A stretch of DNA of 64,000 nt, taken from NCBI GenBank assembly GCA_044356305.1, contig JBIKWM010000008.1, positions 33,947 through 97,946 of the forward strand. The letters are read 5' to 3'. Below, piece by piece: positions 3,844-62,269 of this stretch. The position numbers were made by a program, and so were the translations under genes. Every line of letters begins with the position of its first letter. Within the stretch, counting starts at the first letter, position 1. The notes beneath the pieces are model-generated. The model saw only the letters and a list, made by a program, of their open reading frames with translations, searched no databases and was not told where the DNA came from. This stretch comes from Flavobacteriales bacterium. GTDB taxonomy: Bacteria; Bacteroidota; Bacteroidia; UBA10329.

Positions 3844-4161
3844 CTACTCCAATTCAAACTGCTTACCTATCTCCATGCGTCCGTTAATCACCGCCAGGAC
3901 CGTGATACCGTTCGCCCCATCCGGGTCATATATGATGCGGTAGCCCCGATAGACGATCTCCCGTAGCGTGTGCAAGGGCGTTCCGACAAACTCAGGTACT
4001 GCGCGCCCCATGTGGCGGTTGTTCGGAAGGTGCTCTTCCGTTGACTGCACCAGACGCTGTACAAAGCGCCATGCATATACCTCCGAGTCATGCGCAATGA
4101 ACTCATAGATGGCCCGGAGATTGGCCTCCGCCCTGTGCGACCAGATCACACCTTGCGCCAC
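3844..4161 (-). CDS. type II toxin, RelE/ParE family
   Basis: 105 aa, ...IYDPDGANGITVLAVINGRMEIGK typical ParE/RelE fold signature. Overlaps the upstream small ORF by 16 nt. Confidence 0.75.
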   Translation of the reverse strand: MAQGVIWSHRAEANLRAIYEFIAHDSEVYAWRFVQRLVQSTEEHLPNNRHMGRAVPEFVGTPLHTLREIVYRGYRIIYDPDGANGITVLAVINGRMEIGKQFELE

Positions 4162-4340
4162 GCGTTCATCCGCTCCAGAAGTTCCCCTGTGCTGGCCACC
4201 TTGCCCATTTCCGCATCACTCATCCCCTGAAGCACCTGGTCGATAAGGTGCAGCTCGTTCATGATGTCCTCCATCTTGCTCTCAGGGGGCATCTTTTTCA
4301 GAACCTCAATGCTCGTATCTACTAAGGGTGTGGTTGCCAT
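4146..4340 (-). CDS. putative antitoxin partner of the RelE/ParE toxin
   Basis: 64-aa ORF immediately upstream of and overlapping the toxin gene (operon position). Confidence 0.55.
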   Translation of the reverse strand: MATTPLVDTSIEVLKKMPPESKMEDIMNELHLIDQVLQGMSDAEMGKVASTGELLERMNAWRKV

Positions 4341-4614
4341 GGTCTGAGAATTTCAACCGAAGGTAAGTACCTGTATGGATTTAGGAACTTGGGGTAAGTG
4401 ATTCCCCGCAGTCTTACCAATAGACGTATTTATATGAGGGTGATTTAGGGGCAGTTCGCTGGGTGGCCTTGGACATTTCACGTTGCGAAACCGGGGTAAG
4501 GGAGCGTGCGCAGGCCCGAGGAAGCGTTCCGTAGAGTGAGGTCTTCCGAAAGGCCCGGAACGCGCGGAAAGCGACCGTCCCCGAGTTTCGCAGGGAAATG
4601 TCCACTAGCCTGTT

Positions 4615-4646
4615 GTCATCCTGAGCATGTCGAAGGGTTTTGATCC
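4615..4646. repeat. short dispersed intergenic repeat family, copy 2
   Basis: gtcatcctgagcatgtcgaagggttttgatcc. Confidence 0.35.
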
Positions 4647-4765
4647 TGGAGTTTATCCCGCCCTTGCGGGATATCAAGACAAAAGGATGAAAAGGAATAC
4701 TCCGAAGCGAGCATAAGGATAACTGGTACAATTGAGGGCAATCACATGGGGTAATGTTGCGCCCC

Positions 4766-4830
4766 GTCATTGCAAAGGGTCTTCCCTTCAGCGGTCCGCT
4801 CCAGTCCTGCATCGCAAAGGGCAGGTACCC
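4766..4830. repeat. short dispersed intergenic repeat family, copies 3-4
   Basis: gtcattgcaaagggtcttccct and gcatcgcaaagggcaggtaccc. They share the core with copy 1. Confidence 0.35.
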
Positions 4831-4875
4831 ACGCTAAGCCTGCATGGACGCGACCGGTCCTGTCAATATCTCACC

Positions 4876-5328
4876 TCAGTCCTTCACCGTCACGGTGCCG
4901 GCCGTGAAGTCGCGGCCCACGATCAGGCCATACTGCTCGGCTGTGCGGTCCATCAGCACCACGGGCACCTTCTTCCATATCATCTCAGTGCCCTGGTTGA
5001 GGCCCAGCTCCAGCATGGCCGTGTAATACGGCTTGCCGCCTATGGTCACCACGCCTTCGGCACGGCTGTTCACCGTGCGGCCCTCCCCGGCCTTGTTCAC
5101 CAGTTTGAAGGTCATCGGGTTGCCCACGTTCTTCTCCATGCTCGGACCCCCGTTGCTCACCGCTATGCGCTCGGCATGTATCAGGCTGTGCGCCTGTGTG
5201 GTGTCTATGTCGGCATCCCATCGGGTGTTGCTCTCGCGCACCTCCACCTTACGGTGGCGCTCGGTGGTCTGTTGGGCAACGGCATCAACGGCACAGCATA
5301 GCAGCAGGGCGAACATCAGGTGGCGCAT
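4876..5328 (-). CDS. secreted hypothetical protein, possibly retropepsin-like (DUF785-type) domain
   Basis: Signal peptide MRHLMFALLLCCAVDAVAQ. C-terminal ...VVLMDRTAEQYGLIVGRDFTAG resembles DUF785 / putative zinc-protease family endings. The family assignment is tentative. Confidence 0.55.
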   Translation of the reverse strand: MRHLMFALLLCCAVDAVAQQTTERHRKVEVRESNTRWDADIDTTQAHSLIHAERIAVSNGGPSMEKNVGNPMTFKLVNKAGEGRTVNSRAEGVVTIGGKPYYTAMLELGLNQGTEMIWKKVPVVLMDRTAEQYGLIVGRDFTAGTVTVKD

Positions 5329-5594
5329 GGTGGGTGTGTTTAGGTGTCACGAAACTAATGCACGCCCCCTTAGGCCCGCTGCATGCACCCATGCACCAAA
5401 AGGACTGCAACCCACACATACCGGTTCAGGCAACCCTACGTGGGGCACCCGTCTATCAACGTACCACTCTTTCCCTCCGAACCCGCTCAGGCCACTCCCC
5501 CTCGGCCAAGCGGGTTCGGTACTTTCTGGGGGTGCCATGTAGGAGCATCTTCCCCGGCCCTTTGCTCCACAGACGGCCCTGCCGCCCACCCCCC

Positions 5595-6326
5595 TCAGTT
5601 CAGCCCCACCTGCACCGCGCCTGCCAGCTTCTGGCTCAGCAGATCTATCACCTTCAGCCGCTCGCAATACTCCCCGAACACCTCTTGGTGCCCCGCTATC
5701 CGCTCATGCAGCTGGTCGTGCTCGGCTGCCACATCCAGCATGTACTGCAGCATGTCCTTTTGGTGGTCGGCATGTACACTCAGTATGCCCAGCAGGTCCT
5801 GATGCGCCTGGTCAAAGCTCACCGCATCGGTCGCTATGCCATCGGTCTTGCACGCCTTCACTATCAGGTCGTGTATATGCGCGTCCCATTCCTCGCCCTC
5901 GCTGTCCATCCTATCCAAAAAGGCCTTGTGGTCCTCTATCACAGCGCAGTACGCCTCATATTGGTCCGTGAAGCGGTCGTGCTGATCATGTATGGCATCG
6001 TTGGCCGCGTTCACGGCCTCGGCAAAGGCATCGGCCGTGTCCGTTCGGCCCAGTTGCAGGGCGGCCACATAGTCGGTGGCAGCAGTCTGGGCCGCGCGCA
6101 GCACCTCGCGCACCGCTGTGGTCTGTTCGGCCACGGCCTTCAGCTCCTTATCCACCGCCCCGGCCCGTTCCATGGCGGCCTTCACATCCCGCTCCAGAGC
6201 CGCCTCCCGTTCCGCCAGCCCGAACAGCGCATCCGCCAGTTGCTGGTCCAGTTCTGTCCAGGTTGCGTGCTCATTGTAGGTGTAACTCACCTTCCTTCCC
6301 TCATACATCAACTCTTTGGTGGCCAT
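5595..6326 (-). CDS. hypothetical protein (acidic, helical)
   Basis: 243-aa ORF with normal composition. Its antisense ORF 5196..6353 is G/H/V-rich junk. Confidence 0.6.
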   Translation of the reverse strand: MATKELMYEGRKVSYTYNEHATWTELDQQLADALFGLAEREAALERDVKAAMERAGAVDKELKAVAEQTTAVREVLRAAQTAATDYVAALQLGRTDTADAFAEAVNAANDAIHDQHDRFTDQYEAYCAVIEDHKAFLDRMDSEGEEWDAHIHDLIVKACKTDGIATDAVSFDQAHQDLLGILSVHADHQKDMLQYMLDVAAEHDQLHERIAGHQEVFGEYCERLKVIDLLSQKLAGAVQVGLN

Positions 6327-6700
6327 GTCCTTTGGTTTTGCTTACACTGCTGATACAAAACTATAGAAAGGAGCCTGTGCGCGAAAGGATATCGACAGAC
6401 GGCCCGCGCATCACCCCCTTTACGCAACTGATCGTCCTTTTAGGCGCAGAGCTGAAAGGATGGTGGAGCGGTGCGACAGCGAGAAGATTCCCTCCAGCGG
6501 GTTCGGAAGGAGTATGTAAGGAGAGACCCTTCCAAGTATTGATATTTCTTTCCGATGATGCGCTCACCGTAAATAGGTTACGGTGTGGGTGGGGAGGTTT
6601 GCGGGCGTTTTGAAAACCTGTTAGTTCTTTTTCTCAGACTCAATCTTGAGAAAAAACGTGTCCGTAGATTTGTCCGTGTCCGTAAAACAGTCCGCAACAG

Positions 6701-8911
6701 ATGGCAAGCTATAATTTTTACCTCGATAAGGCCGATAAGAAGGGCTATTCGCCTATCCACCTACGGATCAATTGCGATGGAGAGCAAGTGAAGATTGCCA
6801 CCAAAGAGAAGGTGAACCCGGAAGACTTTGACAAGAAGAAACAAAGGGTCAGAACTGGCAGAGACCGTGCTGAGGCTATCAACCATTATTTGGAACAACT
6901 CCAACAATCGGCAGAGGAGGTGTTCTCAAAGTCAAGCAAAGGAAGAGTGACCTTTGATGAAGTTAAGAAACGGCTGACTGATGTAGTCGATTCCTATAGG
7001 TCTTACAGCAATGTGTCGATGGTAAAGGAGCAATTAGGGCTCTACCGAACTTCTTTCACATTCATAGATCTTTTTGCCGGTGCTGGGGGATTCAGCGAGG
7101 GCTTCCTTCAAGCTGAATACAACAACAAGGTTTTTGATTTCATTGCCGCCAGCGATATCAATGAGAACTGCGAACTGACCCATGAGGTGCGTTACAATCA
7201 TCAGCTCGGGTTAGATATGAAGTTTCTGCGGCAGGATATTACAGCACCTGATTTCCTCGATAATCTACTTGCTGCCGTTGGAAAGAGAAAGATTGATGTG
7301 GTTTGTGGAGGCCCTCCTTGTCAGAGCTTCAGTTTGGCAGGTAAGAGGCGGAAGTACGATAAGAAGGATGACCTGTTCGCGCATTACTTAGAGGTGATCC
7401 GTGCCCTGCGCCCCAAGTATTTTGTGATGGAGAATGTAAAGGGGATATTGACTAAGGAACAGGGTAAGATCGCTGAAGAGATCCTCAAGGAAATGCAGTC
7501 AATCATTGATCTTGAGGGGTTGCCAAAGCTGACTGCATTTATAAGGGTAATCAAGGGGAGGGCGTCAGAAAGGGATATATTGTTGGATAGCATTGCCAAT
7601 CGGCTTAAGCAGGAAGGCCTCAAGGATCAAGAACTAGAAAAAGCGAGGGAAGAGTACATTGGTGTCCTTGATACTTTCTTCAAACAGCTCACCCCGTTGA
7701 TCGCTGACTACAAGACGAGCAAGACCGATGGTAGGATAAGCACAATAAGGCATGGGCTCAACCTTTTACAGCGTAGGACACGCCTCATGCGACTGCGTCA
7801 GGAAGTGATCAAGGAGAAGGACCTGAATTATCTGGATAACGATGCATTTGAGGCTGATTTCAATGCATTCATCCATGCTTTGGAACCCGAGACAATCGTA
7901 GAAAGGATATCATCGGCTTTCGATGCCCTTGTTGTTCCAAAGGCCCATCAGGCCGCGATAGATGGTTTCAAAGAGGCGCTAAGAATTTACACCGCCACAT
8001 TTGATGATTGCATTGAGCGGTTGCGTGCCCTTTGTAATAGTCAAGAGAAAGAAAAGCTCGAGATTATTTTGGAGGAAATCAAGCTGTACCGGATCAATTC
8101 ACCACTTGTTGTCAACTCGTCTGATTATGGTGTGCCTCAGAACAGGGAGCGGGTTCTGTTCATAGGATGCAGAAAGGATCAGAAACTTATCGGCTCGGTG
8201 CCCGCTACGGTCGGGCCCAATGAGAAAGTGTCGGTATTCGAGGCACTTTATGACCTTGATTTTCTTGGCAATAATGAAACCGCCACCCATTACCGGGAAA
8301 TTGACCTCAAGGCCCGATACAATGGATCAACAGCCCGCATGTTGGGATTGATCAAGAAACGCTCTGTGGATGGTGTGCCACAAGATCAGGAAGGCATGAC
8401 CTACGCTCAATGGAGCAGAGAAGGAAGATTACTGTCAGATTATGAGGTCAGGAAACCCGTGTATGTTCGAAATGATGAGGATCTTAAGAAAGGGCGGTTC
8501 GTTCACGAGCCCCTGCCTAATCATCAGACCAGTAACCAGAGCGATAAAGTCGTTCAGCGATTAGAGATTATCCGGAAATCCGGAGATTATAAGCTTGCGC
8601 AATCTGCCCTGTCAGAGGTAGGGCTCAGTTCAGAAAAACGCAACTACTCAGTGCTGCACCCTGAGAAGCAGAGCCCCACTGTGATGACCATTGCCGATGA
8701 CTATGTGCACTACCGGGTGCCCCGTGCCCTGACCGTGCGAGAAATGGCCAGACTACAATCGTTCGATGATTCGTTCGTATTTCAAGGTAAGCGATCCACA
8801 GGCGGCAATGGCCGGAAGTTTGAAATCCCTCAGTTCACGCTTGTGGGGAATGCAGTGCCGCCATTGATGGCGAGAGCAGTGGCGATGGAGATTTTGAGGA
8901 ATATCCGTTAA
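6701..8911 (+). CDS. DNA (cytosine-5)-methyltransferase, Type II R-M; N-terminal 106 aa resemble an integrase arm-type DNA-binding domain
   Basis: Motif I FIDLFAGAGGFSEGF, motif IV GGPPCQSFSLAGKRR, motif VI ENVKG, motif VIII QNRERVLFIGC, motif X GNAVPPLMARAVAMEI. Alternative internal start ATG at 7019 (MVKEQLGLYRTSFTFIDLF...). The region is AT-richer than the flanks. Confidence 0.9.
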   Translation: MASYNFYLDKADKKGYSPIHLRINCDGEQVKIATKEKVNPEDFDKKKQRVRTGRDRAEAINHYLEQLQQSAEEVFSKSSKGRVTFDEVKKRLTDVVDSYRSYSNVSMVKEQLGLYRTSFTFIDLFAGAGGFSEGFLQAEYNNKVFDFIAASDINENCELTHEVRYNHQLGLDMKFLRQDITAPDFLDNLLAAVGKRKIDVVCGGPPCQSFSLAGKRRKYDKKDDLFAHYLEVIRALRPKYFVMENVKGILTKEQGKIAEEILKEMQSIIDLEGLPKLTAFIRVIKGRASERDILLDSIANRLKQEGLKDQELEKAREEYIGVLDTFFKQLTPLIADYKTSKTDGRISTIRHGLNLLQRRTRLMRLRQEVIKEKDLNYLDNDAFEADFNAFIHALEPETIVERISSAFDALVVPKAHQAAIDGFKEALRIYTATFDDCIERLRALCNSQEKEKLEIILEEIKLYRINSPLVVNSSDYGVPQNRERVLFIGCRKDQKLIGSVPATVGPNEKVSVFEALYDLDFLGNNETATHYREIDLKARYNGSTARMLGLIKKRSVDGVPQDQEGMTYAQWSREGRLLSDYEVRKPVYVRNDEDLKKGRFVHEPLPNHQTSNQSDKVVQRLEIIRKSGDYKLAQSALSEVGLSSEKRNYSVLHPEKQSPTVMTIADDYVHYRVPRALTVREMARLQSFDDSFVFQGKRSTGGNGRKFEIPQFTLVGNAVPPLMARAVAMEILRNIR

Positions 8912-9819
8912 CGAAATCGAAAGTATTCAAATCTTCCCCCAGCCCTGAACTCTTCAAGGTTCTCAGACATGTCCTGAAGGATGGAGCGGCTATAGCCGGG
9001 CATATAATTGTTTGCGAAAATCTCCTTGATGGAGCGGGCCACATTCTCTTTTGTCTCTTTACCCCAATAGTTGCCGCCTGAAAGATTGGTGACACGCTTC
9101 ACGGCCACAGAATCAGATTTGTATTGCGCCCTAACATTAGAAGGGACGGTTATGAAGGCGTAAGTGAACGAGGCACACATCTGGATGCTGAACGAGTTGC
9201 GCCCGATGGTGATGTTGCGTCCTCGGAAACCGCCCGCAGAGTAGATCATGTCCCATAGCATAGGAATCTGGGCATTGTCATTCCAATTGGTCTTGCATTG
9301 GATGATGCCGATGCTGAAATCTGAGAACTGATCTGCGACCGCGCGGTCGAGGGCTGCGTAATTGATCTGTCCATTGCTATTGAGGAAACCGCTCTCTGCG
9401 GCATCGGCAGTGAACAATGGCATATCGGGGAAAATGATGACGGTGATATCAGATTCCGTGTTGCACGAGAAATTGCCGTAATTCACGGTAATGGCGTCTT
9501 GAATTGGCTTGGGCACAAGGCTCATTTTCTTGATGGCGACCACCCTAGTACCAGCGGTGCAGAGGTTAACATACCAAGCTACGAGCGATTCCCATGCCGT
9601 TCCGCCAGCGGATACCTCGCCCTGTCCGCGCCCTGTTCCGCCCGTACTCGTGAAGATCTCCGAAAGGTGATTGCCCAGATTCAAAAGATCCTCTGCACGT
9701 GGATTGGCACCAATTCTCCGCTGTATCTGTTCACTCCAAACAGGCCAGCACGATTGAACCGTATCCGTAGAGAAAACCGACTCTACAGCTTTCTTTCTTA
9801 TAACCTCGACAATGTTCAT
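8908..9819 (-). CDS. putative Type II restriction endonuclease (cognate of the C5-MTase)
   Basis: 303 aa from ATG at 9819 (MNIVEVIRKK...); the track ORF extends to 9927 with a G-rich, unlikely N-terminus. Convergent with the MTase and overlaps it by 4 nt. Possible PD-(D/E)xK-like signature ...VIIFPD...(x)...DFSIGIIQCK. No recognisable family beyond context. Confidence 0.5.
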   Translation of the reverse strand: MNIVEVIRKKAVESVFSTDTVQSCWPVWSEQIQRRIGANPRAEDLLNLGNHLSEIFTSTGGTGRGQGEVSAGGTAWESLVAWYVNLCTAGTRVVAIKKMSLVPKPIQDAITVNYGNFSCNTESDITVIIFPDMPLFTADAAESGFLNSNGQINYAALDRAVADQFSDFSIGIIQCKTNWNDNAQIPMLWDMIYSAGGFRGRNITIGRNSFSIQMCASFTYAFITVPSNVRAQYKSDSVAVKRVTNLSGGNYWGKETKENVARSIKEIFANNYMPGYSRSILQDMSENLEEFRAGGRFEYFRFR

Positions 9820-9956
9820 GGGGCCAAAGGAACGGCATTTGATGGAATGAGGCTGTTTGAGTAACCCCACGCCCCCCCGTCCCACACGTCCCCCCTGTCC
9901 CACATCAACGCCTCCCTTCCCGCACACACTTTCATTGCGGGGAGGTTATGCCCCCA

Positions 9957-10313
9957 CTATTTCCTGTTCTTGATGATTTCCTCTATCAGCGCCCTCACCG
10001 CCTTCCACAGAGCAGTCGTCTCAGACGTGCTCAGGTGCTGCAGCAAAGCCGCCAGGTCCACTCCCTTCACAGGCTCCACCTTGGTCATCGGGTGGTTCTC
10101 GGCCGTCCCCGTATAAATGAACAGCTCGTTCATCGTACAGTCGAATAGCTCACAGAGCCGAACCAGATGCTTCCCCTTATAGTTGTCCACCTTCAGGTCA
10201 AGCAGCGTCCGCACCTCACTCCTCGTAAATCCGTTATTCCTCAAGTGCGAGCTCAGATCTTTCACTTGCTTGTTCTTGGCCAGTTCCTTCAGGTTCAGCT
10301 GCAGCTCTTTCAT
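9957..10313 (-). CDS. HTH (XRE-like) DNA-binding protein, candidate R-M controller (C) protein
   Basis: 118 aa. HTH segment LRNNGFTRSEVRTLLDLKVDNYKGKHLVRLCELFDCTMNELF. Lies directly upstream of and co-oriented with the REase candidate, the classical C-protein position. Confidence 0.6.
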   Translation of the reverse strand: MKELQLNLKELAKNKQVKDLSSHLRNNGFTRSEVRTLLDLKVDNYKGKHLVRLCELFDCTMNELFIYTGTAENHPMTKVEPVKGVDLAALLQHLSTSETTALWKAVRALIEEIIKNRK

Positions 10314-10436
10314 GGTATTGGGGTGTTATGGGCCAATGCGCATGGCCCTGTTCATGGTGTTTAGTGCGTTTCTCCATGTGAAATTCAGAAGCTTCACGCA
10401 CAGTTCAGGCGCCATAACGCAACTCCCCACAGTTTA

Positions 10437-10700
10437 TTGCCTCCGCCACCGCCACGTGTGGTGCCGCCCCCACCACATCAGGCACCCTCACCGCCATGTG
10501 TGGTGCCGCCACAGCCACTTATGGCGCCCCCACCGCCATGTGTGGTGCCGCCACAACCACATCAGGCAGCGCCACAGCCACGCATGGCAACGCCACCACC
10601 ACGTGAGGTGCCGCCACCACCACGTGCGGTGCCGCGGCCACCGCAACAGCGCCCGCCCCGACACATAATTCCATCGCCCCCCTCGCTTCCACCACAGCCA
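10437..10700. repeat. degenerate tandem repeat (~21-nt units in ~42-nt higher-order periodicity) rich in CACGTG/CATGTG cores
   Basis: Units ccaccgccacgtgtggtgccgcc / ccgccatgtgtggtgccgcc / accaccacgtgaggtgccgcc, at least 6 copies, in a divergent intergenic region. In one frame it encodes a proline-rich ORF (10437..10766) ending with an ATGA overlap onto the next gene. Confidence 0.7.
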
Positions 10701-10762
10701 CACGGTATTACCCTTCAATTTAGCTGCTGCTCACAAAAACCAACACCAAAAAAACTCCTCCC

Positions 10763-11665
10763 ATGACCGACCGCCAGTCCAACACCCTCGACATGTACGT
10801 GGTAGTACTCGAGCACTATGCCGCCAACCAGACCACCATCGATGCCGTTGTCGCCCGCGCCACTGCCTATGCAGCACTCTCCACACGCGTCACAGGCATC
10901 CGCGCCCTCATAGCCGACCAGTCCGGCAACATCAGTGGCGTCACCCAGAACAAGGCCGCCCTTCGTGCCTCCCTCGACAACCTCGCCATCGGCATACTCG
11001 CCCCCGCCCTCGTCTGGGCCCGCGCAACAGATAACCTCATCCTCGCAGCCGAATTCAACTACCCATTGTCCGAGATCCAGAAGATCAAGGACGACACCAT
11101 CGCATCCTTCTGCAACCACCGCTACGCCTTGGTCAATGCCAACATCGCCACCATGGCCGACTACGGCATCACTCCCGCCATGCTCACCGCATGGAACTCC
11201 GCAATCAGCAACTACGAGGCCGTCACAGGCTCCCCACGCAGCGCCCGCGTCTCCAGATCCGTGTTCACCATCGCCCTCCGCACCCACTTCAAAGAGGCCA
11301 ACGCACTCCTCAAAAACACCCTCGACCCCCTCATGAACTCTTTCCGCACCTCCGATGCCGACCTCTACAACGGCTACCGCAGGGCACGCATCATCATCGA
11401 CCGCAGAGGCCAGAACACCGGATCCATCTCCGGCAAGGTCTCCTCCGCAGCCGACTCATCTCCCATCATCGGGGCCGAGCTATCCATCACTCCGCGCCCG
11501 TCCACCGTGCTCTCAGGCTCCGATGCCACCTACCGCTTCTCCTACCTGCCGGCCGGCATCTATACCGTCAAGTGCACCGCCCCCGGCTTCCTCCCGGCCG
11601 ACAAGACCATCGTCCTCACCTCCTCGCAGACCGCCACAGCCGACTTCGTCCTCATCCCCGCCTGA
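10763..11665 (+). CDS. hypothetical protein with C-terminal carboxypeptidase-regulatory-like beta-sandwich domain
   Basis: 300 aa. C-terminal GKVSSAADSSPIIGAELSI...YRFSYLPAGIYTVKCTAPGF...ADFVL typical CarbopepD_reg-like fold. Confidence 0.7.
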   Translation: MTDRQSNTLDMYVVVLEHYAANQTTIDAVVARATAYAALSTRVTGIRALIADQSGNISGVTQNKAALRASLDNLAIGILAPALVWARATDNLILAAEFNYPLSEIQKIKDDTIASFCNHRYALVNANIATMADYGITPAMLTAWNSAISNYEAVTGSPRSARVSRSVFTIALRTHFKEANALLKNTLDPLMNSFRTSDADLYNGYRRARIIIDRRGQNTGSISGKVSSAADSSPIIGAELSITPRPSTVLSGSDATYRFSYLPAGIYTVKCTAPGFLPADKTIVLTSSQTATADFVLIPA

Positions 11666-11738: not shown

Positions 11739-11850
11739 CCCCAAACAGAAAGCGACCCTCGCGGGCCGCTTTTCTTAGGATATGTGCACAGACCTTACTC
11801 CCCCTTCGCGAAGCGTGTCCCGTGCGTGGTCCAATCCGCAAGAGTGAGGT
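11739..11850. repeat. orphan copy A of a T9SS-CTD gene 3' end plus hairpin (gene-remnant repeat)
   Basis: About 75 nt near-identical to 12553-12628. The reverse strand encodes ...VARFAKGE* followed by the hairpin AGAAAGCG/CGCTTTCT. It also resembles the real 3' end of the CTD gene at 13566. Confidence 0.6.
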
Positions 11851-12043: not shown

Positions 12044-12508
12044 TTACTCTCCGTCTTCATAGTCAAAGGCTTCTCTCGGGTTTCGAATCTCCAGGATCTG
12101 GTATCCCTTCAACAGATTTATGGCGTTATAGCCATGAATTCTCTCAATGTTCACGATGTGTTTGAAATTCCAGCTCACCAATAGGTCAGCCCTGTAGAGG
12201 GTGGCCAAGGCAATATGATAGCAATCGGCCCGGCTTGATCTGCCCACCACATTCGCATTGAGGTAGGCCTCTGCGAGGAGAATGGCTTCTTCTGTGAGTT
12301 CCACTCTGATGAGGTTCTTTTCAGCAATCTGACCTACGAACTGTCGTACAGCCTCTGGTGCATTGACCAGTTCATCTTCAGCCACATCGGAAAAAATCAG
12401 TCGGATGTCGGTCTTATCAACCTTCCTGAAAAAGCGATCGGTCCACTCTGCGAATTCCCTATCAAACCTGCCTCCAAAGACCGAAGTGTCAACATATATC
12501 AATCGCAT
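12044..12508 (-). CDS. PIN-domain (VapC-like) ribonuclease toxin
   Basis: Start at ATG 12508 (MRLIYVDTSVFGG...). The track ORF extends upstream through repeat copy B, which is spurious. PIN acidic residues D6...E...D are present. Confidence 0.7.
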   Translation of the reverse strand: MRLIYVDTSVFGGRFDREFAEWTDRFFRKVDKTDIRLIFSDVAEDELVNAPEAVRQFVGQIAEKNLIRVELTEEAILLAEAYLNANVVGRSSRADCYHIALATLYRADLLVSWNFKHIVNIERIHGYNAINLLKGYQILEIRNPREAFDYEDGE

Positions 12509-12552
12509 GAAACAAATGTAGTGTTTCCGCAAATAGTTGATTCCCGCTTCCG

Positions 12553-12664
12553 GCCCAAACAGAAAGCGACCCACGCGGGCCGCTTTTCTTAGGATATGTG
12601 CACAGACCTTACTCCCCCTTCGCGAAACGCGCCACCTGCGTGGTGCCATCGGGCAGGGTTCAGG
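12553..12664. repeat. orphan copy B of a T9SS-CTD gene 3' end plus hairpin
   Basis: Shares cccaaacagaaagcgacccacgcgggccgcttttcttaggatatgtgcacagaccttactcccccttcgcgaa with copy A, then continues like the 13566-13620 coding 3' end. Confidence 0.6.
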
Positions 12665-13162
12665 TCAGAGTTCGTACAACGGCCTCTCACCATGACTTTC
12701 TAGCAACGTATTGAGTAAGGGTAGGGAATAGTAGCGCCCGCTGGTGATGAAGGCAGAGAAAAGTGGCCTGAGCTCAGTGATCAGACCTTTGTTTTTTGCT
12801 GCCACAAGAACGCCCAAGGTGCCAACGCATGAGATGCCGAGCGTTTCGGCTATGCGTCTGGCCTTTCTGTCATCAATCAACAGGAAGTCGGCCTCCATCT
12901 CCTTGCAGAGCATAACGGCCTCCGACTCGCCATCGTCCATCATGAAAGTGAGCTCATTGATGCCCTTCACCGCGCGCACCTTATCTTGGAAGAACGCATG
13001 AATGCGGTGATGGTGAGGGGTTGCGGGGTCAGATGTGACCTCGTGCCAAACGGCATCGGGGATCAGAATATGTGAGAATAGCGAAGGCAGAATATGTAGC
13101 CGGTCTATGATCGCCAATGAGAAAATGGGGCCAGAGTCTGCAACAACCTTCTGCCCACGCAT
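12665..13162 (-). CDS. DUF3368-type PIN-like toxin
   Basis: 165 aa. Partner of the upstream UPF0175 ORF, with a 1-nt spacing. Confidence 0.7.
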   Translation of the reverse strand: MRGQKVVADSGPIFSLAIIDRLHILPSLFSHILIPDAVWHEVTSDPATPHHHRIHAFFQDKVRAVKGINELTFMMDDGESEAVMLCKEMEADFLLIDDRKARRIAETLGISCVGTLGVLVAAKNKGLITELRPLFSAFITSGRYYSLPLLNTLLESHGERPLYEL

Positions 13163-13565: not shown

Positions 13566-15320
13566 TCATTCCCCCTTCGCGAAGCGCGCCACCTGCGTGG
13601 TGCCATCGGGCAGAGTGAGGCGCAGGGCGTAGGTGCCCGGGCGCAGATGGGCTGTGCTCAGTTGCAGTTGGCCGCCAGTGGTGCTGATGGTGCGCTGCAT
13701 GGCCGTGCGGCCCATCATGTCGGTGATGGTGACCAGCGCAGGGCCATCGGGCAGCGAGGCCATGCGCAGGGTGAGGGCATCGGTGGCCGGGTTGGGGAAC
13801 AGCGCCAGGGTGGGGGAGGTGGTGGCCGCATTCACGCCCACCAGATCGCTGATGGTGTTCAGCGTGGTGTTGGTGATCACCGGCTCGTTGAAGTCGAAGT
13901 AGATGTAGGCGGTGTTCTCAATCTCGGTGCCCTGTGGCGTGCCGCTCAGGGGCGAGATGGCATAGATCACATAGCCGTGGCTGCCGGGCTCATCGCTGGT
14001 GCTGTCGGGCAGGTTGATGTTGTCGAAGAAGAAATCGACCTCGTTGGTCGGGCTGATGCTCACCTGCATCAGGTGGCTCTGGCTCAGGACACGGAAGCTG
14101 AGCGGGTCGAGGTCGGCATCGAGCTGATCCTTGACATGGATGAAGGTGGCCGCAATGGTGCCCGTGTTCTGGAACCGTACGGTGTACATCAGCTCGGTAC
14201 CGCTGGGCACAAAGCCCTCGGGACCCATGCCCACGGGCGCCACCTGCTTGTCGTTGGGGTCGAAGGAGCACAGCACCGCCACGGGGTGCGCATCGGTGCC
14301 GGCCGAGGAGGTGAGGTCGATATCGACCATATCGCCACAGTTGACCGTGAGCGGCACACAGGCCACCACGGTGGCCGTAAAGGTGTTGCCGGCCGGTAGG
14401 TACACGCTGTTCCATGTGGCCGTGTTGCCGCTGATCAGGTCGGGGGTGGGGCTTACGCCCTGCAGATTGATGTCGCTATCGAGCGTGATGGAGAACGGCC
14501 CGTTGTAGATGGAGCACGAGTTGTTGACCAACTGTGCGCTCAGGCTGGAGCAGAACCCGCGGTTGAGCCACGATACCACATAGGTCTCGGGCTGCGCACC
14601 GATGGTGGGCATGTAGATGCTGGCCGATCCGCTGCACGCACCGTCACTCACTGTAACCTGCGCCACCGCGGTGTTGCTCACGGTAATGGTCTGGGTGGTC
14701 TCGCCCGTGCTCCACAGGTACGAGAAAGGCCCTGCGCTATTGGCTACATCGGCAGTCAGGTCGGTAGGCCCTGCGCAAGGGTTGCTGTTGCTCGATGTGA
14801 TGGTCACCTGTGGGCCTTCGGTCACATTGTAGGTCTCGGTGGTGGCACATCCGTTGGCATCGACCAACGTGAGGATGTAAGCACCTTGGCACAGCCCCGT
14901 GACCACCGGTGAGGTGTTGCCGTTGGGTGTCCAACTGTATGCATACGGGGAGTTGCCACCGGTCACAATAACCGAAATGGACCCATCGCACGCCCCGCAC
15001 GTTGGCGGGGTTATGACCTCGGACGTCAGCACCGGGGTAGAACTGACAATGGTCGCGGCCTGCGTCTGACTGGCCCCTTGGCCGTCAGTCACTGTGAGGA
15101 CGTACACGCCCGGACATAGGTTGAAGAGGTTCTGTTCCGTGGATCCATTGCTCCACATGTAGGTATAGTTGCCATCGCCTCCGAACACCACTACCTGCAC
15201 CGAGCCGTTGCACATGCCCTCACAAGTGGCCATGTTGGGTAACAGCGAAATAGTGAGCTGCGCCTGTGCGGCCATGGCGCTGACGACAAGGGCCGAGACA
15301 AGGGTAATGGTACGGAGCAT
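13566..15320 (-). CDS. SprB-repeat (Ig-like, CxxC) cell-surface protein with T9SS type-A C-terminal domain
   Basis: Signal peptide. Repeated ...C(E/G)xxCxGS(I/V)xV...GGxxxY.Y.W modules. C-terminal LALFPNPATDALTL...GTYALRLTLPDGTTQVARFAKGE. Confidence 0.85.
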   Translation of the reverse strand: MLRTITLVSALVVSAMAAQAQLTISLLPNMATCEGMCNGSVQVVVFGGDGNYTYMWSNGSTEQNLFNLCPGVYVLTVTDGQGASQTQAATIVSSTPVLTSEVITPPTCGACDGSISVIVTGGNSPYAYSWTPNGNTSPVVTGLCQGAYILTLVDANGCATTETYNVTEGPQVTITSSNSNPCAGPTDLTADVANSAGPFSYLWSTGETTQTITVSNTAVAQVTVSDGACSGSASIYMPTIGAQPETYVVSWLNRGFCSSLSAQLVNNSCSIYNGPFSITLDSDINLQGVSPTPDLISGNTATWNSVYLPAGNTFTATVVACVPLTVNCGDMVDIDLTSSAGTDAHPVAVLCSFDPNDKQVAPVGMGPEGFVPSGTELMYTVRFQNTGTIAATFIHVKDQLDADLDPLSFRVLSQSHLMQVSISPTNEVDFFFDNINLPDSTSDEPGSHGYVIYAISPLSGTPQGTEIENTAYIYFDFNEPVITNTTLNTISDLVGVNAATTSPTLALFPNPATDALTLRMASLPDGPALVTITDMMGRTAMQRTISTTGGQLQLSTAHLRPGTYALRLTLPDGTTQVARFAKGE

Positions 15321-46612: not shown

Positions 46613-47220
46613 AGATCATCTGTATAGGTCGCAACTATGCCGACCACGCCAAAGAGCTGAACAACCCGGTGCCCGAGGAACCCATGTTCTTCATAAAGCC
46701 CGACACCGCCCTGCTGCGCAACAACGACCCCTTTGTGATACCCGCATTCACCAAAGACCTGCACTATGAGGTAGAGGTGTTTGTCAAGATAAGGAAGAAG
46801 GGCAAGAACATCAGCGTGAAATTTGCCCCGCAGTACTACTCAGAGGTGGGACTGGGCATCGACCTCACCGCCCGCGATGTGCAGGCCCGCTGCAAAGAGA
46901 AGGGCTGGCCGTGGGAGAAGGCCAAGGCCTTTGACGGCTCGGCACCCGTGAGCGAGACTGTGCCACTGGCCACCACCGGCAACATTGACGGCCTGAGCTT
47001 TGAACTGAAGAAGAACGGTGAGACCGTGCAGCGCGGCTACACGGGTGATATGATCTACTCCATGGACCAGATCATACACCACGCATCCAAGTTCTTTACC
47101 TTGCGCGTGGGCGACCTCATCTTTTCGGGCACCCCGGCCGGGGTGGGCAAACTCGAACCGGGCGACCGCCTCGAAGGCCACCTTGAGGGCCTGAAGATGT
47201 TCGACTTCAAAGTGCGTTGA
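46609..47220 (+). CDS. fumarylacetoacetate hydrolase (FAH) family protein
   Basis: MKIICIGRNYADHAKELNNPVPEEPMFFIKP... Confidence 0.8.
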   Translation: MKIICIGRNYADHAKELNNPVPEEPMFFIKPDTALLRNNDPFVIPAFTKDLHYEVEVFVKIRKKGKNISVKFAPQYYSEVGLGIDLTARDVQARCKEKGWPWEKAKAFDGSAPVSETVPLATTGNIDGLSFELKKNGETVQRGYTGDMIYSMDQIIHHASKFFTLRVGDLIFSGTPAGVGKLEPGDRLEGHLEGLKMFDFKVR

Positions 47221-47363
47221 GGGCCGAACTGGAGCCACAGTACACAAAGCCTTGGTGAATGACCACCGCATTTGCGCGGTCTGCTTCTCTTATGAAGGCA
47301 CAGAGACTTCGTGTGTCATGTTCCGCGTGGGTTATCCTGCGGAACGCAAGAGCGAGCGGGGGG

Positions 47364-48335
47364 CTACTCCCTTTGCACCACAAGTTTACGCACTGCCACG
47401 GCACCGTTCTCAAACTGTGCTCGCACCATGTACACCCCAATGTTAAGGCCACTTACATCTATCTCCCGCACCGCACCGCCATGGCTTTGCAGATCCCGCC
47501 CGCTCAGGTCATTTATGGCCACTGTGTTTATTCGCCTGTTGCTATTGTGGCTTATGGCCACAGTTGTTGTGGCGGGGTTGGGGTAGATATCAAAGCCATA
47601 CATTTCGCTGTCTTTGACACCGTTGGGTAGTTCTATACGCCTGACGGAAACATCGTCAATAAAGTAATATGCAATTCCAGAAATTATACTTGTGTCGTTG
47701 ATAACATCTGTATCCTCATCCGTACTAAAATTCCCGATGGTTAAAAAAGATTCAGCCCCACTGGCAACGTACAGTGCATCAAAATTATACCATAAACCAG
47801 ATTCCTGCATAAATTCAATTCCTGGCCCAATTATTTGAGGTGCCACAGGCAAGAGAGGAAAGCTGCCAGTATCGGAATAAACTGGTTGTGAAGAAAAATG
47901 CATACCGATGGATTTAATGGCAGGTGCAACGTTACATGACTTTGAAATATGCATTTTAACCCTATAAGTACATCCATAAATTAAGGTTTCCTTTAGTTTA
48001 TTCGAAACATATTCTCGGCCATTTCCTGACCGTGAATAAACAATGAGACCAATCATGCCATCACCTGAATTGGTCATGTTAACGTTACAATCCATTGCCG
48101 GAATACCCACATATGGATTCATTTCATTTGCACATAAATTAAAATAATCCGGAGTGCCAGTTGTTGGGTTGTACCAATGTAACAATTTATCCACTTCACT
48201 AGGTACAAAAGGAGGACTAATTTGAGTTGGACATTCATAATACTCCTCAAATCCACCATTAGGGACAAGATTGGGTTCTTGCGAAAACCCTTTATCCGCG
48301 GCCAACAATAGACCAATAATTATTATTGCTCTCAT
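47364..48335 (-). CDS. T9SS cargo protein, CBM4/9-like N-terminal domain, type-A CTD (duplicate copy 1)
   Basis: Signal peptide. QEPNLVPNGGFEEY start typical of CBM_4_9. C-terminal ...YPNPATTTVAISHNSNRRINTV...GVYMVRAQFENG. Confidence 0.75.
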   Translation of the reverse strand: MRAIIIIGLLLAADKGFSQEPNLVPNGGFEEYYECPTQISPPFVPSEVDKLLHWYNPTTGTPDYFNLCANEMNPYVGIPAMDCNVNMTNSGDGMIGLIVYSRSGNGREYVSNKLKETLIYGCTYRVKMHISKSCNVAPAIKSIGMHFSSQPVYSDTGSFPLLPVAPQIIGPGIEFMQESGLWYNFDALYVASGAESFLTIGNFSTDEDTDVINDTSIISGIAYYFIDDVSVRRIELPNGVKDSEMYGFDIYPNPATTTVAISHNSNRRINTVAINDLSGRDLQSHGGAVREIDVSGLNIGVYMVRAQFENGAVAVRKLVVQRE

Positions 48336-48820
48336 GGTGCCAAAATAAACTTACTCGTGATTCCTGAGATTTGAATAAAGTAAACCCCACCAGCAAAGCC
48401 GTTAAGTTCTAACTTAGTTTGGCCACAATTTAGAATATTACGCTCTATAACGTGACCTAAGGGATTAGTGATCACATATTCAAACTTCTCTTCTGATACG
48501 CAACCTTCAACTCCGACCCATACGTGACGAGTAGTTGGGTTAGGATATACTATGACCTTAATGGACGATTCATCATCGTCAGTCACAGGAACTAAGTCGT
48601 CTTGTCCTCTTCTTTCAGAAGGTGGTTCTGTCAATAACTCACATTCATTGATCCATTCCCTATGCACCAATGTATCACGAGCAGAAAGTACTGCCCTTGC
48701 CAGATAAACTGAACTTCCTGAATCAAGCGGGCAAGCCGATGCCAAGGATTCGAGCCATGGCAGATCGACACTGTCGGGCATGGTGTTCTCTGACCAATGT
48801 GTGATGTTATAGGCCATCAT
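48332..48820 (-). CDS. CTD-only ORF (T9SS sorting domain without signal peptide); possible gene fragment
   Basis: C-terminal ...VIVYPNPTTRHVWV...GGVYFIQI. No N-terminal signal. 4-nt overlap with the downstream cargo gene. Confidence 0.5.
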   Translation of the reverse strand: MMAYNITHWSENTMPDSVDLPWLESLASACPLDSGSSVYLARAVLSARDTLVHREWINECELLTEPPSERRGQDDLVPVTDDDESSIKVIVYPNPTTRHVWVGVEGCVSEEKFEYVITNPLGHVIERNILNCGQTKLELNGFAGGVYFIQISGITSKFILAP

Positions 48821-48859
48821 CCTGGTTAAGGTACGTTCAGCATCATAAACTACAGGTTG

Positions 48860-49804
48860 CTACTCCCTCTGCACCACAAGTTTACGCACCGCCACGGCAC
48901 CGTTCTCAAACTGTGCTCGCGCCATGTACACCCCATTGTTAAGGCCACTCACATCTATCTCCCGCACCGCACCGCCATGGCTTTGCAGATCCCGCCCACT
49001 CAGGTCAGTTATGGTTACAGTACTTATTCGCCTGTTGCTTTTGTGGCTTATGGCCACAGTTGTTGTGGTGGGGTTGGGGTAAAGTTCAAAGTTCAGTTGC
49101 TCATAATCTTTTATTCTATTGGGTGGATCTACACGTTTGACTGAGACATCGTCTATGAAGTAATAGGCCATTTGCAATCCACCGGGCAATAACTGAAATG
49201 GCGTTTCACTATCCAATAAAAAATTGCCTATTGTCAGGAACAACTCCCCTCCATTTGCAAGCAGGGTATCAATATACTCAAACCAATGGTGGACATCACT
49301 GAGTATAACAGAAGGATCATGATTTAGAGATGGTGTTAAACTCAATGTTGAATGATCAACATTCATTTCTGAAATTGAATCAATTGAAAAGTGAGTTCCA
49401 AATGAACCAATATATCCGATACAACATGTAGATATTGGTCTCAATTGGACTGAAGTTTCATAGTACTGGTTGTAAAGCAAAGGCTCAGTTAATTTAGTAG
49501 ATAAATATTCTTTAACGCCATATAAGCCAAGGCCAATCATTCCATTTCCCTCATATGGATAAACTGAATTACTCCCGAAATTGCAAGGGACTCCGTAATC
49601 GGAAATTATTTCATTTGCACAGATATGAAATAATTCAGGTGTACAATTCGAAGGAATAAACCAACTTGCAGCAAAGGCCCCTTGGCCTCCTTGAGAAGGA
49701 CATTGTATATATTCTTCAAACCCACCATTTGGCACTAAATTGGGTTCTTGTGCGGTACAGAACCCAAAAAAAGAAGAAAAGCACATTAAGGACACCTTTC
49801 TCAT
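48860..49804 (-). CDS. T9SS cargo protein paralogue (duplicate copy 2)
   Basis: Start ATG 49804 (MRKVSLMCFSSFFGFCTAQEPNLVPNGGFEEY). The 3' 230 nt are ~95% identical to 47364-47640. Confidence 0.75.
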   Translation of the reverse strand: MRKVSLMCFSSFFGFCTAQEPNLVPNGGFEEYIQCPSQGGQGAFAASWFIPSNCTPELFHICANEIISDYGVPCNFGSNSVYPYEGNGMIGLGLYGVKEYLSTKLTEPLLYNQYYETSVQLRPISTCCIGYIGSFGTHFSIDSISEMNVDHSTLSLTPSLNHDPSVILSDVHHWFEYIDTLLANGGELFLTIGNFLLDSETPFQLLPGGLQMAYYFIDDVSVKRVDPPNRIKDYEQLNFELYPNPTTTTVAISHKSNRRISTVTITDLSGRDLQSHGGAVREIDVSGLNNGVYMARAQFENGAVAVRKLVVQRE

Positions 49805-49945
49805 GGCACCAAAATAATTTTGTTGGTGACCCCTGAGATTTGAATAAAATACAATCCCCCCGGCCCGCGCGAGTGTTCCGTAGGACCACTCGTGTGGTGT
49901 GGAACACGATCGGTCTGTGACCGATCTAACAACTAGGCATTCCAT
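49805..49945 (-). pseudogene. degraded remnant of a second CTD-only ORF
   Basis: Reverse strand encodes ...GGIVFYSNL.., aligning with the GGVYFIQISGITSKF tail of 48332..48820. Flanking nt similarity exists (tgagatttgaataaa). Confidence 0.4.
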
Positions 49946-50171
49946 ACATCCATTGTTTCAGTAGGTGAGCAGTACATCAAGCAGGCCCGGAAGGTCGGCA
50001 TAATTCCCTGCGCTGCGGTAGAGGCAGTGTTCGGGCTGTTGTAGTATTCCCTCTTTCACCGGGTTGTTGTGCATGTGGTCCAACTTCTGTTGAATGACCT
50101 CTGAACTGAACACCTCGATCCCTCACACCGCCCAGCGTGAAATCCTCGTTGCGGGTGGTGCCGGGGCATGG

Positions 50172-61242: not shown

Positions 61243-62262
61243 ATGAAAGCGGGCTGCGGTAGTAGAAACTCAGGCACAGCTGGCACCTTTGCCGAGAAGG
61301 AACGCGCCCTCAATTGGAACCTCTTTGACCTCCGCACTTACGATGGCCGCACCGGCCGCTTCCACAACCCTGACCCCATGTGGCAGTATGCCAGCCCCTA
61401 CATGGCCATGGGCAACAACCCGTTGAGTGTGGTGGACCCTACGGGGGGAGAGGGCAGCGAAGGAGGCTCCTGTCCACATAGTCTGGTCGGTACATGTTGC
61501 GAATGTGAAGGAACTTGCCCCACGGGCAATTCATCCAGTAACTCAAATGGATTGACATGGAGCTGGGGTGACGGGCAAGGGACCTCAGGTGGAACAGGTG
61601 CACCGAAACTTGGTGCTGCCGACCTTCAGGATTTAATTTTCAAATCAAATAACGAAGAGGAGATCCATGCCCTGTATCTCGCACTGTCAACTGTTGATAA
61701 TTGGATATATGAGGCGCGAGCAAGTAATATTCGTGAACAAGGGCTCGCCAATGGAACTGTTGGAAATCTAACAGCGAGTCAGGATGGGCCCGGTGATGGG
61801 CATGGTCAGTCAAGGCTTGTCAATTCAGATTCAGGCCCAAGACCATTTTCCTCCAATCCATATATTCATGGAGCAAAATCCTTTATGGATTATGTTTATG
61901 GAACCTTCTATGATATTGGAACCCTTATTGAGCATATAACTTATACCAATCCGAATGTAATAACAGGAATGCCACCTGACGGCATTATTGGAGGACCATT
62001 GAAAAATGGAGATAAGGCGATTCGACTAGGCAAAATATTATTGAACAGAAATGCTTGGCACACCGTAAAAGATACTTTTTTGAAAAGTGCTGGAGGGGGT
62101 CGAGGTAAGTGGGCACATATTGTGGGGACTAATCCGGATATTGATTATATTGGGGGAAGGATTGTTCTTGCCGGTAGGGATGCATTTCGTGGTAAAACAC
62201 ACCCAACGGAGTACACTCTTGACATGTTTATAGATTTTCTTTTAAAAAATGGGTTGAAATAA
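61243..62262 (+). CDS. orphan RHS C-terminal toxin tip (conserved RHS-core end followed by unknown ~290-aa toxin domain)
   Basis: Starts FAEKERALNWNLFDLRTYDGRTGRFHNPDPMW...DPTG (RHS core terminal motif). There is no upstream RHS core (stops and a GNAT gene). Lower GC. Confidence 0.7.
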   Translation: MKAGCGSRNSGTAGTFAEKERALNWNLFDLRTYDGRTGRFHNPDPMWQYASPYMAMGNNPLSVVDPTGGEGSEGGSCPHSLVGTCCECEGTCPTGNSSSNSNGLTWSWGDGQGTSGGTGAPKLGAADLQDLIFKSNNEEEIHALYLALSTVDNWIYEARASNIREQGLANGTVGNLTASQDGPGDGHGQSRLVNSDSGPRPFSSNPYIHGAKSFMDYVYGTFYDIGTLIEHITYTNPNVITGMPPDGIIGGPLKNGDKAIRLGKILLNRNAWHTVKDTFLKSAGGGRGKWAHIVGTNPDIDYIGGRIVLAGRDAFRGKTHPTEYTLDMFIDFLLKNGLK

Positions 62263-62269
62263 TTAAGGA

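Follow-up and report, generated by a model that had tools for sequence, protein, structure and literature searches.

An acquired two-gene Type II restriction-modification cassette of a Flavobacteriales bacterium combines a predicted PD-(D/E)xK nuclease with a putatively self-regulating C5 methyltransferase

We analyzed a 64,000-nucleotide (nt) stretch of the genome of a Flavobacteriales bacterium (GenBank assembly GCA_044356305.1, contig JBIKWM010000008.1, positions 33,947 to 97,946; hereinafter, the window) and found a restriction-modification (R-M) cassette consisting of two convergent genes, M and R, which encode a 736-amino-acid (aa) C5 DNA methyltransferase (MTase) and a 303-aa restriction endonuclease (REase) candidate, respectively. 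With a probability of roughly 0.7, this is an acquired two-gene Type IIP R-M cassette that is inserted in a defense slot, targets CCWGG, and is regulated by its own MTase through an N-terminal Arm-DNA-bind_5 domain (here, the Arm domain). This reading builds on the gene content, the predicted fold of the nuclease, the linkage of R and M genes, the polymorphism of the cargo in the slot, an operator that occurs together with the Arm domain, the swapping of nuclease partners, and the depletion of CCWGG. Its proposed parts are the binding of the Arm domain to DNA, the resulting repression, interference by antisense transcription, the target, and the activity of the nuclease. The R-M system itself is ordinary and comes from a very large family; its regulatory architecture and its nuclease family appear to be undescribed.

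The M gene (6701..8911, plus strand) encodes a protein that matches the Pfam DNA_methylase profile (PF00145, E = 4.6e-56) and TIGR00675 (E = 1e-48), both in two blocks. Alignment to M.HaeIII and 3g7u revealed the C5 motifs in the order I, IV, VI, VIII, IX, and X, namely, F125-AGAGG (motif I, FxGxG), P206-C207-Q208 (motif IV, PCQ), E244-N245-V246 (motif VI, ENV), Q480-NRER (motif VIII, QxRxR), RALTVRE (motif IX), and G716-NAVP (motif X, GNxVP). By these motifs, the protein is a predicted C5 enzyme with all of the catalytic motifs. It is composed of the Arm domain (aa 9-77), motifs I to VI (aa 119-267), a helical insert (aa ~270-460), and a C-terminal part (aa 463-736) that contains motif VIII, a large target-recognition domain, and motifs IX and X. 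The Arm domain matches PF17293 with E = 1e-9 and 39.2 bits, against a cutoff of 22.6. Arm-DNA-bind_5 is otherwise the N-terminal domain of Bacteroidota tyrosine integrases. The Arm plus DNA_methylase architecture is present in 119 of the best 120 MTase homologues. In an AlphaFold2 (AF2) model built with 30 database homologues, the Arm domain consists of three strands and two helices (predicted local distance difference test [pLDDT] score of 80-92) and the insert of about 10 helices (pLDDT 75-92), and a fold search with this model returned C5 MTases only. The all-helical insert of ~190 aa, which lies between motifs VI and VIII (7508-8080), is conserved and matches no family; it occurs with or without the Arm domain and is missing in 446-aa homologues from Bacillota.

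The R gene (8908..9819, minus strand) begins with an ATG that is backed by homologues starting at the same position, and its stop codon overlaps that of the M gene by 4 nt (8908-8911). The encoded 303-aa protein belongs to no family in Pfam, NCBIfam, PADLOC, or PHROGs. It has at least 1,844 homologues (319 clusters at 50% identity), annotated as hypothetical only, which are found in Bacteroidota, Clostridia/Bacillota, Proteobacteria, Fibrobacter, and one metagenome-assembled genome (MAG) of an archaeon, Bathyarchaeota. An AF2 model based on the family alignment reached a pLDDT of 95.5 and a predicted template modeling score of 0.94. Foldseek searches against the PDB returned PfoI (6eko_A) as the top match, with E = 9.9e-6, a probability of 1.00, and a template modeling (TM) score of 0.50 over 306 columns, followed by Cfr10I with E = 0.1 and nothing further credible. 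On the basis of the model and the fold search, we predict with high confidence that this protein is a PD-(D/E)xK nuclease. D124, Q174, and K176 are nearly invariant across 62 family sequences, and the candidate catalytic residues, assigned by sequence order only, are E77, E122-x-D124, Q174-x-K176, and D190. D190 is found at K176+14, a spacing that the displaced acidic residue also has in NgoMIV and Cfr10I.

PfoI (Type IIP; cuts T^CCNGGA; PDB 6eko) gave the best match of fold along the entire chain and, like the model of the 303-aa protein, has an N-terminal helical subdomain followed by a C-terminal PD-(D/E)xK core. The catalytic residues of PfoI, as established by structure and mutagenesis, are arranged as E113...E167xD169...K187 (PMC6344858), an E...ExD...K order that is paralleled by E77...E122xD124...K176 in our protein. 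The two differ in the D-to-K spacing (52 here, 18 in PfoI), and their recognition residues cannot be aligned. The CCGG family has an R-(D/E)R recognition motif, located on the helix that follows the catalytic lysine (PMC6344858). Because this motif is absent from the 303-aa protein, in which the residues from K176 on are KTNWNDNAQ, we predict that it acts like PfoI and the CCGG enzymes yet do not assign it to the CCGG family.

Eighty-two loci encoding relatives of the 303-aa protein were fetched and their open reading frames (ORFs) were called. A C5 MTase gene is present near the R relative in 79 of the 82 loci, and 73 of these 79 pairs are convergent and directly adjacent, mostly with an overlap of 4-8 nt. 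Two of the three loci without a nearby MTase stop at a contig edge. The linked MTases include 47 with both Arm domain and insert (~737 aa, Bacteroidota), 24 with neither (most of ~446 aa and mainly from Bacillota/Clostridia, with some fragments), and 3 complete ones with the insert alone (L048, L067, and L073). The closest cassettes, in loci L003 and L004, encode REases that are 84% and 80% identical to ours (tblastn), and the L004 MTase is 74% identical. The linkage between R and a C5 MTase spans phyla, and a conserved convergent arrangement of this kind is characteristic of Type II R-M pairs. A sequence-only reading of this DNA had proposed a complete Type II R-M module, with a C5 MTase on the plus strand and a convergent 303-aa ORF on the minus strand that overlaps the MTase stop by 4 nt. 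Profile matches and ordered motifs bear out the former gene and the ORF positions the latter, and the C5 motifs, the predicted nuclease fold, and the conserved linkage uphold the module as a whole. The same reading had seen no recognizable endonuclease family, which is true for sequence profiles but not for the fold, which is PfoI-like by AF2 and Foldseek; the structure prediction that it suggested for the 8908..9819 product was run and yielded a predicted nuclease.

In seven loci (L005, L020, L039, L050, L054, L063, and L072), the gene directly upstream of R encodes a ~220-aa protein that is similar to HhH-GPD/endonuclease III (PF00730, E = 2.7e-15 in L005) and has a cluster of Cys residues at its C terminus; the end of this gene meets or overlaps the start codon of R. 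The protein may be a T:G mismatch glycosylase that travels with the 5-methylcytosine (m5C) system, which would fit the repair of deaminated m5C.

The nuclease partners of the Arm-type MTases were counted for 77 complete MTases among the operator-selected metagenome matches listed (see below). Nineteen of the 77 are paired with a convergent nuclease of the 303-aa family, and 46 with a co-directional nuclease of ~394 aa that belongs to the MvaI_BcnI family (PF15515, E of ~1e-71; weak PDB match to R.BcnI). Furthermore, a convergent 251-aa EcoRII-C-like protein (PF09019, E = 1e-11) was found in L142 and L158. The MTases of the 303-aa and MvaI_BcnI classes are phylogenetically intermixed, and the overall identity of cross-class pairs reaches 94%, with 96% in the target-recognition region. 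Because near-identical MTases are paired with either nuclease, the swapped nucleases would have to share their specificity. One MTase lineage with swapped nucleases provides a natural experiment on the replacement of the partner without loss of protection. A Bacteroidia MAG (L048) has one MTase gene (6187-8121, minus strand) together with two nuclease genes, one MvaI_BcnI-like (4905-6185, minus strand) and the other a convergent member of the 303-aa family (3996-4892, plus strand), and is a possible intermediate in nuclease replacement. In L171 and L129, a 211-225-aa protein and a DUF262-like protein with an FQRKL motif recur beside the Arm-MTase module; in L171 this pair directly follows the MTase, in place of a recognizable nuclease. 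In L161, an Mrr_cat protein is encoded 310 nt after the MTase module.

These data also bear on the possibility that the 303-aa protein is no REase but, for example, a nuclease with an m5C-linked repair or accessory function, or else a relic without activity, in which case the MTase would be effectively solitary. Such a role would account for the lack of a sequence family, for the presence of Q174 at a position usually occupied by D/E, and for the HhH-GPD glycosylase gene joined to some related loci, which indicates that repair functions travel along. We regard it as quite improbable in view of the full-length fold match to a Type IIP REase, the strict linkage of convergent genes with overlapping ends, the conservation of D124/Q174/K176 in the 62 sequences, the avoidance of CCWGG by the cassettes, and the replacement of the 303-aa protein by bona fide REase families (MvaI_BcnI and EcoRII-C) beside near-identical MTases in sister loci.

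Among the enzymes with related targets, MvaI, EcoRII, and PspGI cut CCWGG, Ecl18kI cuts CCNGG, and BcnI cuts CCSGG (PMC4081073, PMC6344858). The 45 cassettes of the same class as that in the window contain 19 CCWGG sites, compared with 92.6 expected. This observed/expected (O/E) ratio of 0.21 is lower than that of any other of the 92 palindromic motifs compared, and CCWGG is missing altogether from 33 cassettes. Similar counts were obtained for class-B cassettes (11 observed, 79.7 expected) and for non-Arm cassettes (5 observed, 36.6 expected). The cassette in the window has no site, and the whole window has 103, with 152 expected. Because the MTase partners are swapped with MvaI_BcnI and EcoRII-C nucleases and CCWGG is depleted, the most likely target of both the MTase and the REase is predicted to be CCWGG. 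The same system might recognize CCNGG or another CC(N)GG-type site, given the CCNGG cores in the sites of PfoI, Ecl18kI, and SsoII and the CCSGG site of BcnI (PMC6344858, PMC4081073), such that the family leaves the central base open. This is unlikely, since CCSGG is not depleted (cassette O/E, 0.93; flank O/E, 1.01), in contrast to CCWGG (0.14-0.21). A nuclease family of at least 1,844 members in several phyla, for which Pfam, NCBIfam, PADLOC, and the PDB have no entry, thus obtains a predicted fold, a partner, and a testable target; if CCWGG is confirmed, the family would represent the third or fourth independent protein solution for cutting this sequence.

Upstream of the M gene, four direct GTCCGT/GTCCGC half-sites on the plus strand start at positions 6660, 6672, 6678, and 6690 (6660..6695), with a spacing of 12/6/12, and constitute the proposed operator of the Arm domain. 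All 45 distinct upstream regions of Arm-MTase genes share the block TGTCCGTAAATTTGTCCGTgTCCGtAAAAAtGTCCGtAA, typically starting ~30 nt before the ATG, while the sequence around it is otherwise unconserved; the 12/6/12 spacing was found in 37 of 41 cases. Clusters of at least three half-sites lie upstream of most Arm-type MTase genes, and the other complete ones retain two. There are none in non-Arm loci, and only one other half-site cluster was found in the 878 kb scanned. The 27-nt pattern of the array is unique in the window (0 expected). A metagenome scan with this pattern identified at least 120 loci, and among the matches listed, 120 of 120 have the start of an Arm-MTase gene just downstream. 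Two further candidates were considered and rejected. Searches of viral contigs with a 17-mer operator core gave 30 chance matches in unrelated contexts, none of them with the full array or an Arm-MTase, and somewhat operator-like GTCCC repeats upstream of R (9868-9905) lie in the conserved flank and contain no GTCCGT cluster.

Located 25-50 nt before the M start codon in all cases, the array encloses a -7-like box, in the window TAGATTTG (6665..6672, plus strand), which was identified by sequence reading between half-sites 1 and 2. The family consensus of this box is TAAATTTG, with a conserved upstream tTG, and TAGATTTG, a putative promoter element, matches the Bacteroidetes -7 promoter consensus, TAnnTTTG; a sigma-70 promoter scan is not applicable to Bacteroidota. 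On the other strand, the -7-like element TTCCTTTG (9825..9832, minus strand), 5 nt upstream of the R start codon, is shared with relatives and may function as the R promoter. A GTT(C/A)CTTTGG element precedes R in L001 and L003, and the similar TTTTTCTTTGA does so in L004. MTases that repress their own genes by an N-terminal DNA-binding region are known from SsoII/Ecl18kI, EcoRII, and MspI (PMC3874152, PMC2760811). By analogy, the likely regulator of our cassette is the MTase's own Arm domain, which would bind the array and repress M. No description of such autoregulation of an MTase by an Arm domain and direct repeats was found in the literature searched. The recruitment of an Arm domain to an MTase is a clean case of domain recruitment, with an operator of ~40 bp that is nearly invariant across hundreds of genomes.

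Arm domains normally work in site-specific recombination, and the array and the Arm domain might serve mobility or DNA targeting instead, the former as arm-type recombination sites or the latter as a tether of the MTase. The array is only ~55 nt inside the left cassette boundary, and the same M module occurs with different R partners at many genomic sites, which would suit such a function. Nevertheless, we consider it very improbable: neither the cassette nor the adjoining sequence contains a recombinase gene, no second array exists at the other cassette end or anywhere else in the loci, and the invariable position of the array before the M start, around a -7-like box, is the geometry of an operator. 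Highly improbable, too, is a combined version, in which the Arm-MTase and its array form a portable M module whose arm-type sites also aid cassette movement and nuclease swapping, with the MTase binding these sites as an accessory to a tyrosine recombinase of the host. If true, it would explain how one MTase lineage came to be associated with three unrelated nucleases at many sites without a recombinase of its own.

The acquisition of the cassette is evident from sister genomes that keep the same flanks with different cargo. The flanks of the sister contigs are 92-95% identical to those of the window, and in the contigs carrying homologues of a helix-turn-helix (HTH) gene upstream of R, the slot is bounded by this gene and a CarboxypepD_reg gene on one side and by genes for 243-aa and 150-aa proteins on the other. 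The cargo consists of another C5 MTase and four genes of no assigned function in L115, an AspBHI_N/Mrr_cat protein and an HNH_2 protein in L116 and L118, an HATPase_c_3 set in L117, and a true C-protein/HNH/C5-MTase system in the contig of P0271. An exact look-up of the HTH and 243-aa proteins, meant to find a relative with an empty slot, gave only further assemblies of this same genome, and the slots compared hold alternative cargos without an empty one among them. Judged by these alleles, the slot between the 243-aa gene and the HTH/CarboxypepD_reg genes is a strain-variable defense hotspot flanked by core genes. Defense hotspots flanked by core genes are known, for example, from the Escherichia coli pan-genome (PMC10121019). 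The present one is similar to these in that the same flank pair encloses differing defense cargo without an integrase, and it differs in that it belongs to an uncultured Bacteroidota lineage, is uncatalogued, and has been seen in only four or five alleles.

The limits of the cassette were derived from the ends of sister-contig homology. On the left, blastn homology with L115 and L116 stops at ~6481 and 6402, respectively, apart from a 58-nt patch (6545..6602); on the right, it stops at 9871-9882, which is 52-63 nt upstream of the R start codon and downstream of the HTH gene (blastn). The imported segment, comprising the M promoter/operator, the M gene, the R gene, and the R promoter, is thus placed at ~6603-9871 (6603..9871; ~3.3 kb, two genes; GC content of 0.483) and, by this criterion, is narrower than the low-GC islet of ~6.3-10.4 kb drawn by the sequence-only reading. 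The drop in GC content that had suggested the islet is confirmed, with values of 0.45-0.52 at 6251-9500, 0.54-0.55 at 9500-10500, and ~0.61 on both sides. It is real but not extreme: the cassette has 48.3% GC, compared with 55.4% for the 64-kb window (z = -1.9 among other 3.3-kb windows), and patches of lower GC content exist at 36-39, 47-50, and 62-63 kb. A clearer separator of cassette and host genes is the GC content at third codon positions (GC3), which is 0.54 for the MTase gene and 0.59 for the REase gene, as opposed to 0.76-0.84 for the flanking genes, including a host-like 0.77 for the HTH gene. Horizontal acquisition, which had been suspected from composition and gene arrangement, is now shown by the alternative cargo between near-identical flanks as well as by the GC3 contrast.

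The 58-nt patch contains a hairpin with an 8-bp stem (CACCGTAA-ATAGG-TTACGGTG, 6565-6585) and is 88% identical (blastn) to L115 6435-6492, where it is located just 3' of a gene for a 156-aa protein that is missing from the window. The patch is probably a leftover, or scar, of previous cargo. No tRNA genes were found, nor any flanking repeats, direct or inverted, of the kind expected for an integrative element, and among the 30 window ORFs scanned in Pfam, no integrase or transposase was matched.

The HTH gene (9957..10313, minus strand) encodes a 118-aa protein with an HTH_26 domain (E = 8.6e-6). The sequence-only reading took it for the controller (C) protein of the system, and in a C-protein-controlled system it would activate R and delay its expression. 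Indeed, a Cro/C1-type HTH gene upstream of R in the same orientation is an arrangement known from the C-protein systems PvuII and Esp1396I. In addition, a small HTH gene ends at the R start in L014, L073, and L082, with products that match HTH_26 and HTH_3 in L014 and L073; therefore, C control exists in this REase family. We nonetheless hold very little expectation of C control in the window. The window protein is not similar to the HTH protein of L014, has no homologue in the 82 related R-M loci, and has only two homologues among 5.8 billion proteins. Its gene lies within the 92-93% identical right flank shared with sister contigs and has host-like GC3, and one of its alleles (P0272) stands beside three unrelated cargos. 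It is separated from R by a 137-nt gap, whereas the -7-like R element is common to L001, L003, and L004, all of which have no HTH gene; the cassettes of L003 and L004 are flanked by unrelated housekeeping genes. At 118 aa with a long C-terminal extension, the protein also differs from the 70-100-aa C proteins. Only weak, imperfect palindromes, judged by eye, are seen upstream of 10313. In contrast to the PvuII and Esp1396I genes, the HTH gene is, on this comparative evidence, part of the conserved chromosomal flank outside the cassette and not its controller. For genome annotation, the lesson is that an HTH gene in the "C-protein position" need not belong to the R-M system and may instead be part of the flank of a defense slot.

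The HTH gene has diverged far more than the genes around it. Compared with its counterpart in L115 (1454-1804), it has a synonymous divergence (dS) of 0.47-0.50, a nonsynonymous divergence of 0.24, and 66% aa identity, compared with a dS of 0.04-0.15 and 95-98% identity for the surrounding genes. The first 40 residues are almost identical to those in L115, and the divergence is concentrated in the cargo-proximal half, a pattern that fits recombination tracts ending inside the gene.

In our favored reading of a self-regulated cassette, the 736-aa enzyme would methylate cytosine at C5 within CCWGG, and the 303-aa protein would be a Mg-dependent endonuclease that cuts the same site when unmethylated. 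Upon entry into a new host, the M promoter would be unrepressed and fire freely. Transcription of M would run antisense through R because the genes are convergent, their stops overlap, and there is no terminator between them (no terminator-like hairpin was found at the M/R junction). The four GTCCGT repeats would enclose the region from the -7 box through the probable start site to the 5' leader of M; as the MTase accumulates, several monomers would fill the repeats and bring the M promoter down to a maintenance level. The repression of M would then release R, which would be expressed from its own -7-like element, TTCCTTTG. The element common to all classes would be the homeostatic autorepression of M.

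Several points weigh against this reading. With regard to the nuclease, neither phmmer nor hmmsearch with the 62-sequence profile matched any solved REase in the PDB, the fold match to PfoI has a TM score of only ~0.5 with 11% identity, and the sequence after K176 (TNWNDNAQIPMLWD) contains no Arg to form the R-(D/E)R motif. The full-length AF2 model of the MTase is poor (pLDDT of 58.7) and confident only in the Arm domain and the insert, and no solved homologue of the Arm domain was found by sequence. The connection of the Arm domain to the operator is correlative, although the correlation is perfect, and the putative M promoter was assigned by its match to a general consensus. The antisense step would not be general because M and R are co-directional in class-B loci. 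The host flanks, too, have fewer CCWGG sites than expected (O/E of 0.68), and part of the signal could be background. The methylated position in CCWGG is uncertain because MvaI is not known to be blocked by Dcm-type m5C. Finally, the HTH protein may act in transcription that reads into the slot.

Among characterized systems, SsoII/Ecl18kI resembles the one proposed here in several respects: its C5 MTase has an additional module at the N terminus that binds DNA, with the operator located at the MTase promoter, its REase is a member of the CCGG structural family, to which we liken the window nuclease, and a C protein is absent (PMC2760811, PMC3978073). The SsoII module is a helix-turn-helix of ~70 aa that binds an inverted repeat between divergent genes, whereas the window system has a beta-sheet Arm-DNA-bind_5 domain, four direct repeats to which it would bind, and convergent genes. 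The R and M genes of EcoRII are also convergent. EcoRII further resembles the window system in its target, CCWGG (predicted here), in an MTase that represses its own promoter (PMC3874152), as is proposed here, and in that an EcoRII-C-like nuclease is an alternative partner in the Arm-MTase family; it differs in the fold of the regulator domain and in its nuclease, as the window REase has no EcoRII-C profile match, no R-(D/E)R motif, and no N-terminal effector domain. MvaI/BcnI-type nucleases, the partners of near-identical Arm-MTases in most of the matches counted above, appear functionally interchangeable with the 303-aa protein, yet they are monomeric enzymes of an unrelated fold family with co-directional genes, and no such nuclease is encoded in the window.

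The flanks of the slot are well conserved. The genes for the 150-aa and 243-aa proteins on the left (4876..6326, minus strand) match no family and are 95-98% identical in L115 and L116, and the right flank gene (10763..11665, plus strand) encodes a 300-aa CarboxypepD_reg protein (PF13620, E = 3.7e-13) that is 97% identical in both. The HTH and CarboxypepD_reg genes are divergent and 449 nt apart, and the sequence between them contains, also in L115 and L116, ~11 imperfect 21-bp tandem repeats (10438-10668; 60-80% identity), the units of which contain CCAYGTGTGGTGCC. One frame of this array reads Pro-rich heptads (ORF 10437..10766), and the repeats could possibly represent an operator array of the HTH protein, coding sequence, or neither.

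The slot is part of a small stretch rich in defense and toxin-antitoxin genes (3.8-13.2 kb), which includes a ParE pair, the R-M slot, and PIN/DUF3368 genes. The ParE toxin gene (105 aa; PF05016, E = 1.6e-14) and an upstream 64-aa ORF that its start overlaps, likely the antitoxin, are located at 3844-4340 in a local GC dip (4.0-4.75 kb). A 106-nt direct repeat (89% identity) is present at 11740-11845 and 12554-12659, with a partial third copy at 13570-13616 that corresponds to the 3' end of a SprB gene with a type IX secretion system (T9SS) tail (13566..15320); T9SS tails and SprB repeats in the window agree with an origin in Bacteroidota. The copies bracket low-GC PIN (12044..12649) and DUF3368 (12665..13162) cassettes and look like serial insertions, each of which duplicated the 3' end of the gene. 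Farther downstream, patches with a GC content of 0.41-0.49, lower than that of the R-M cassette, occur at 47000-50000 and 62000-63000, and the former encodes two secreted proteins with T9SS tails (47364..48335 and 48860..49945).

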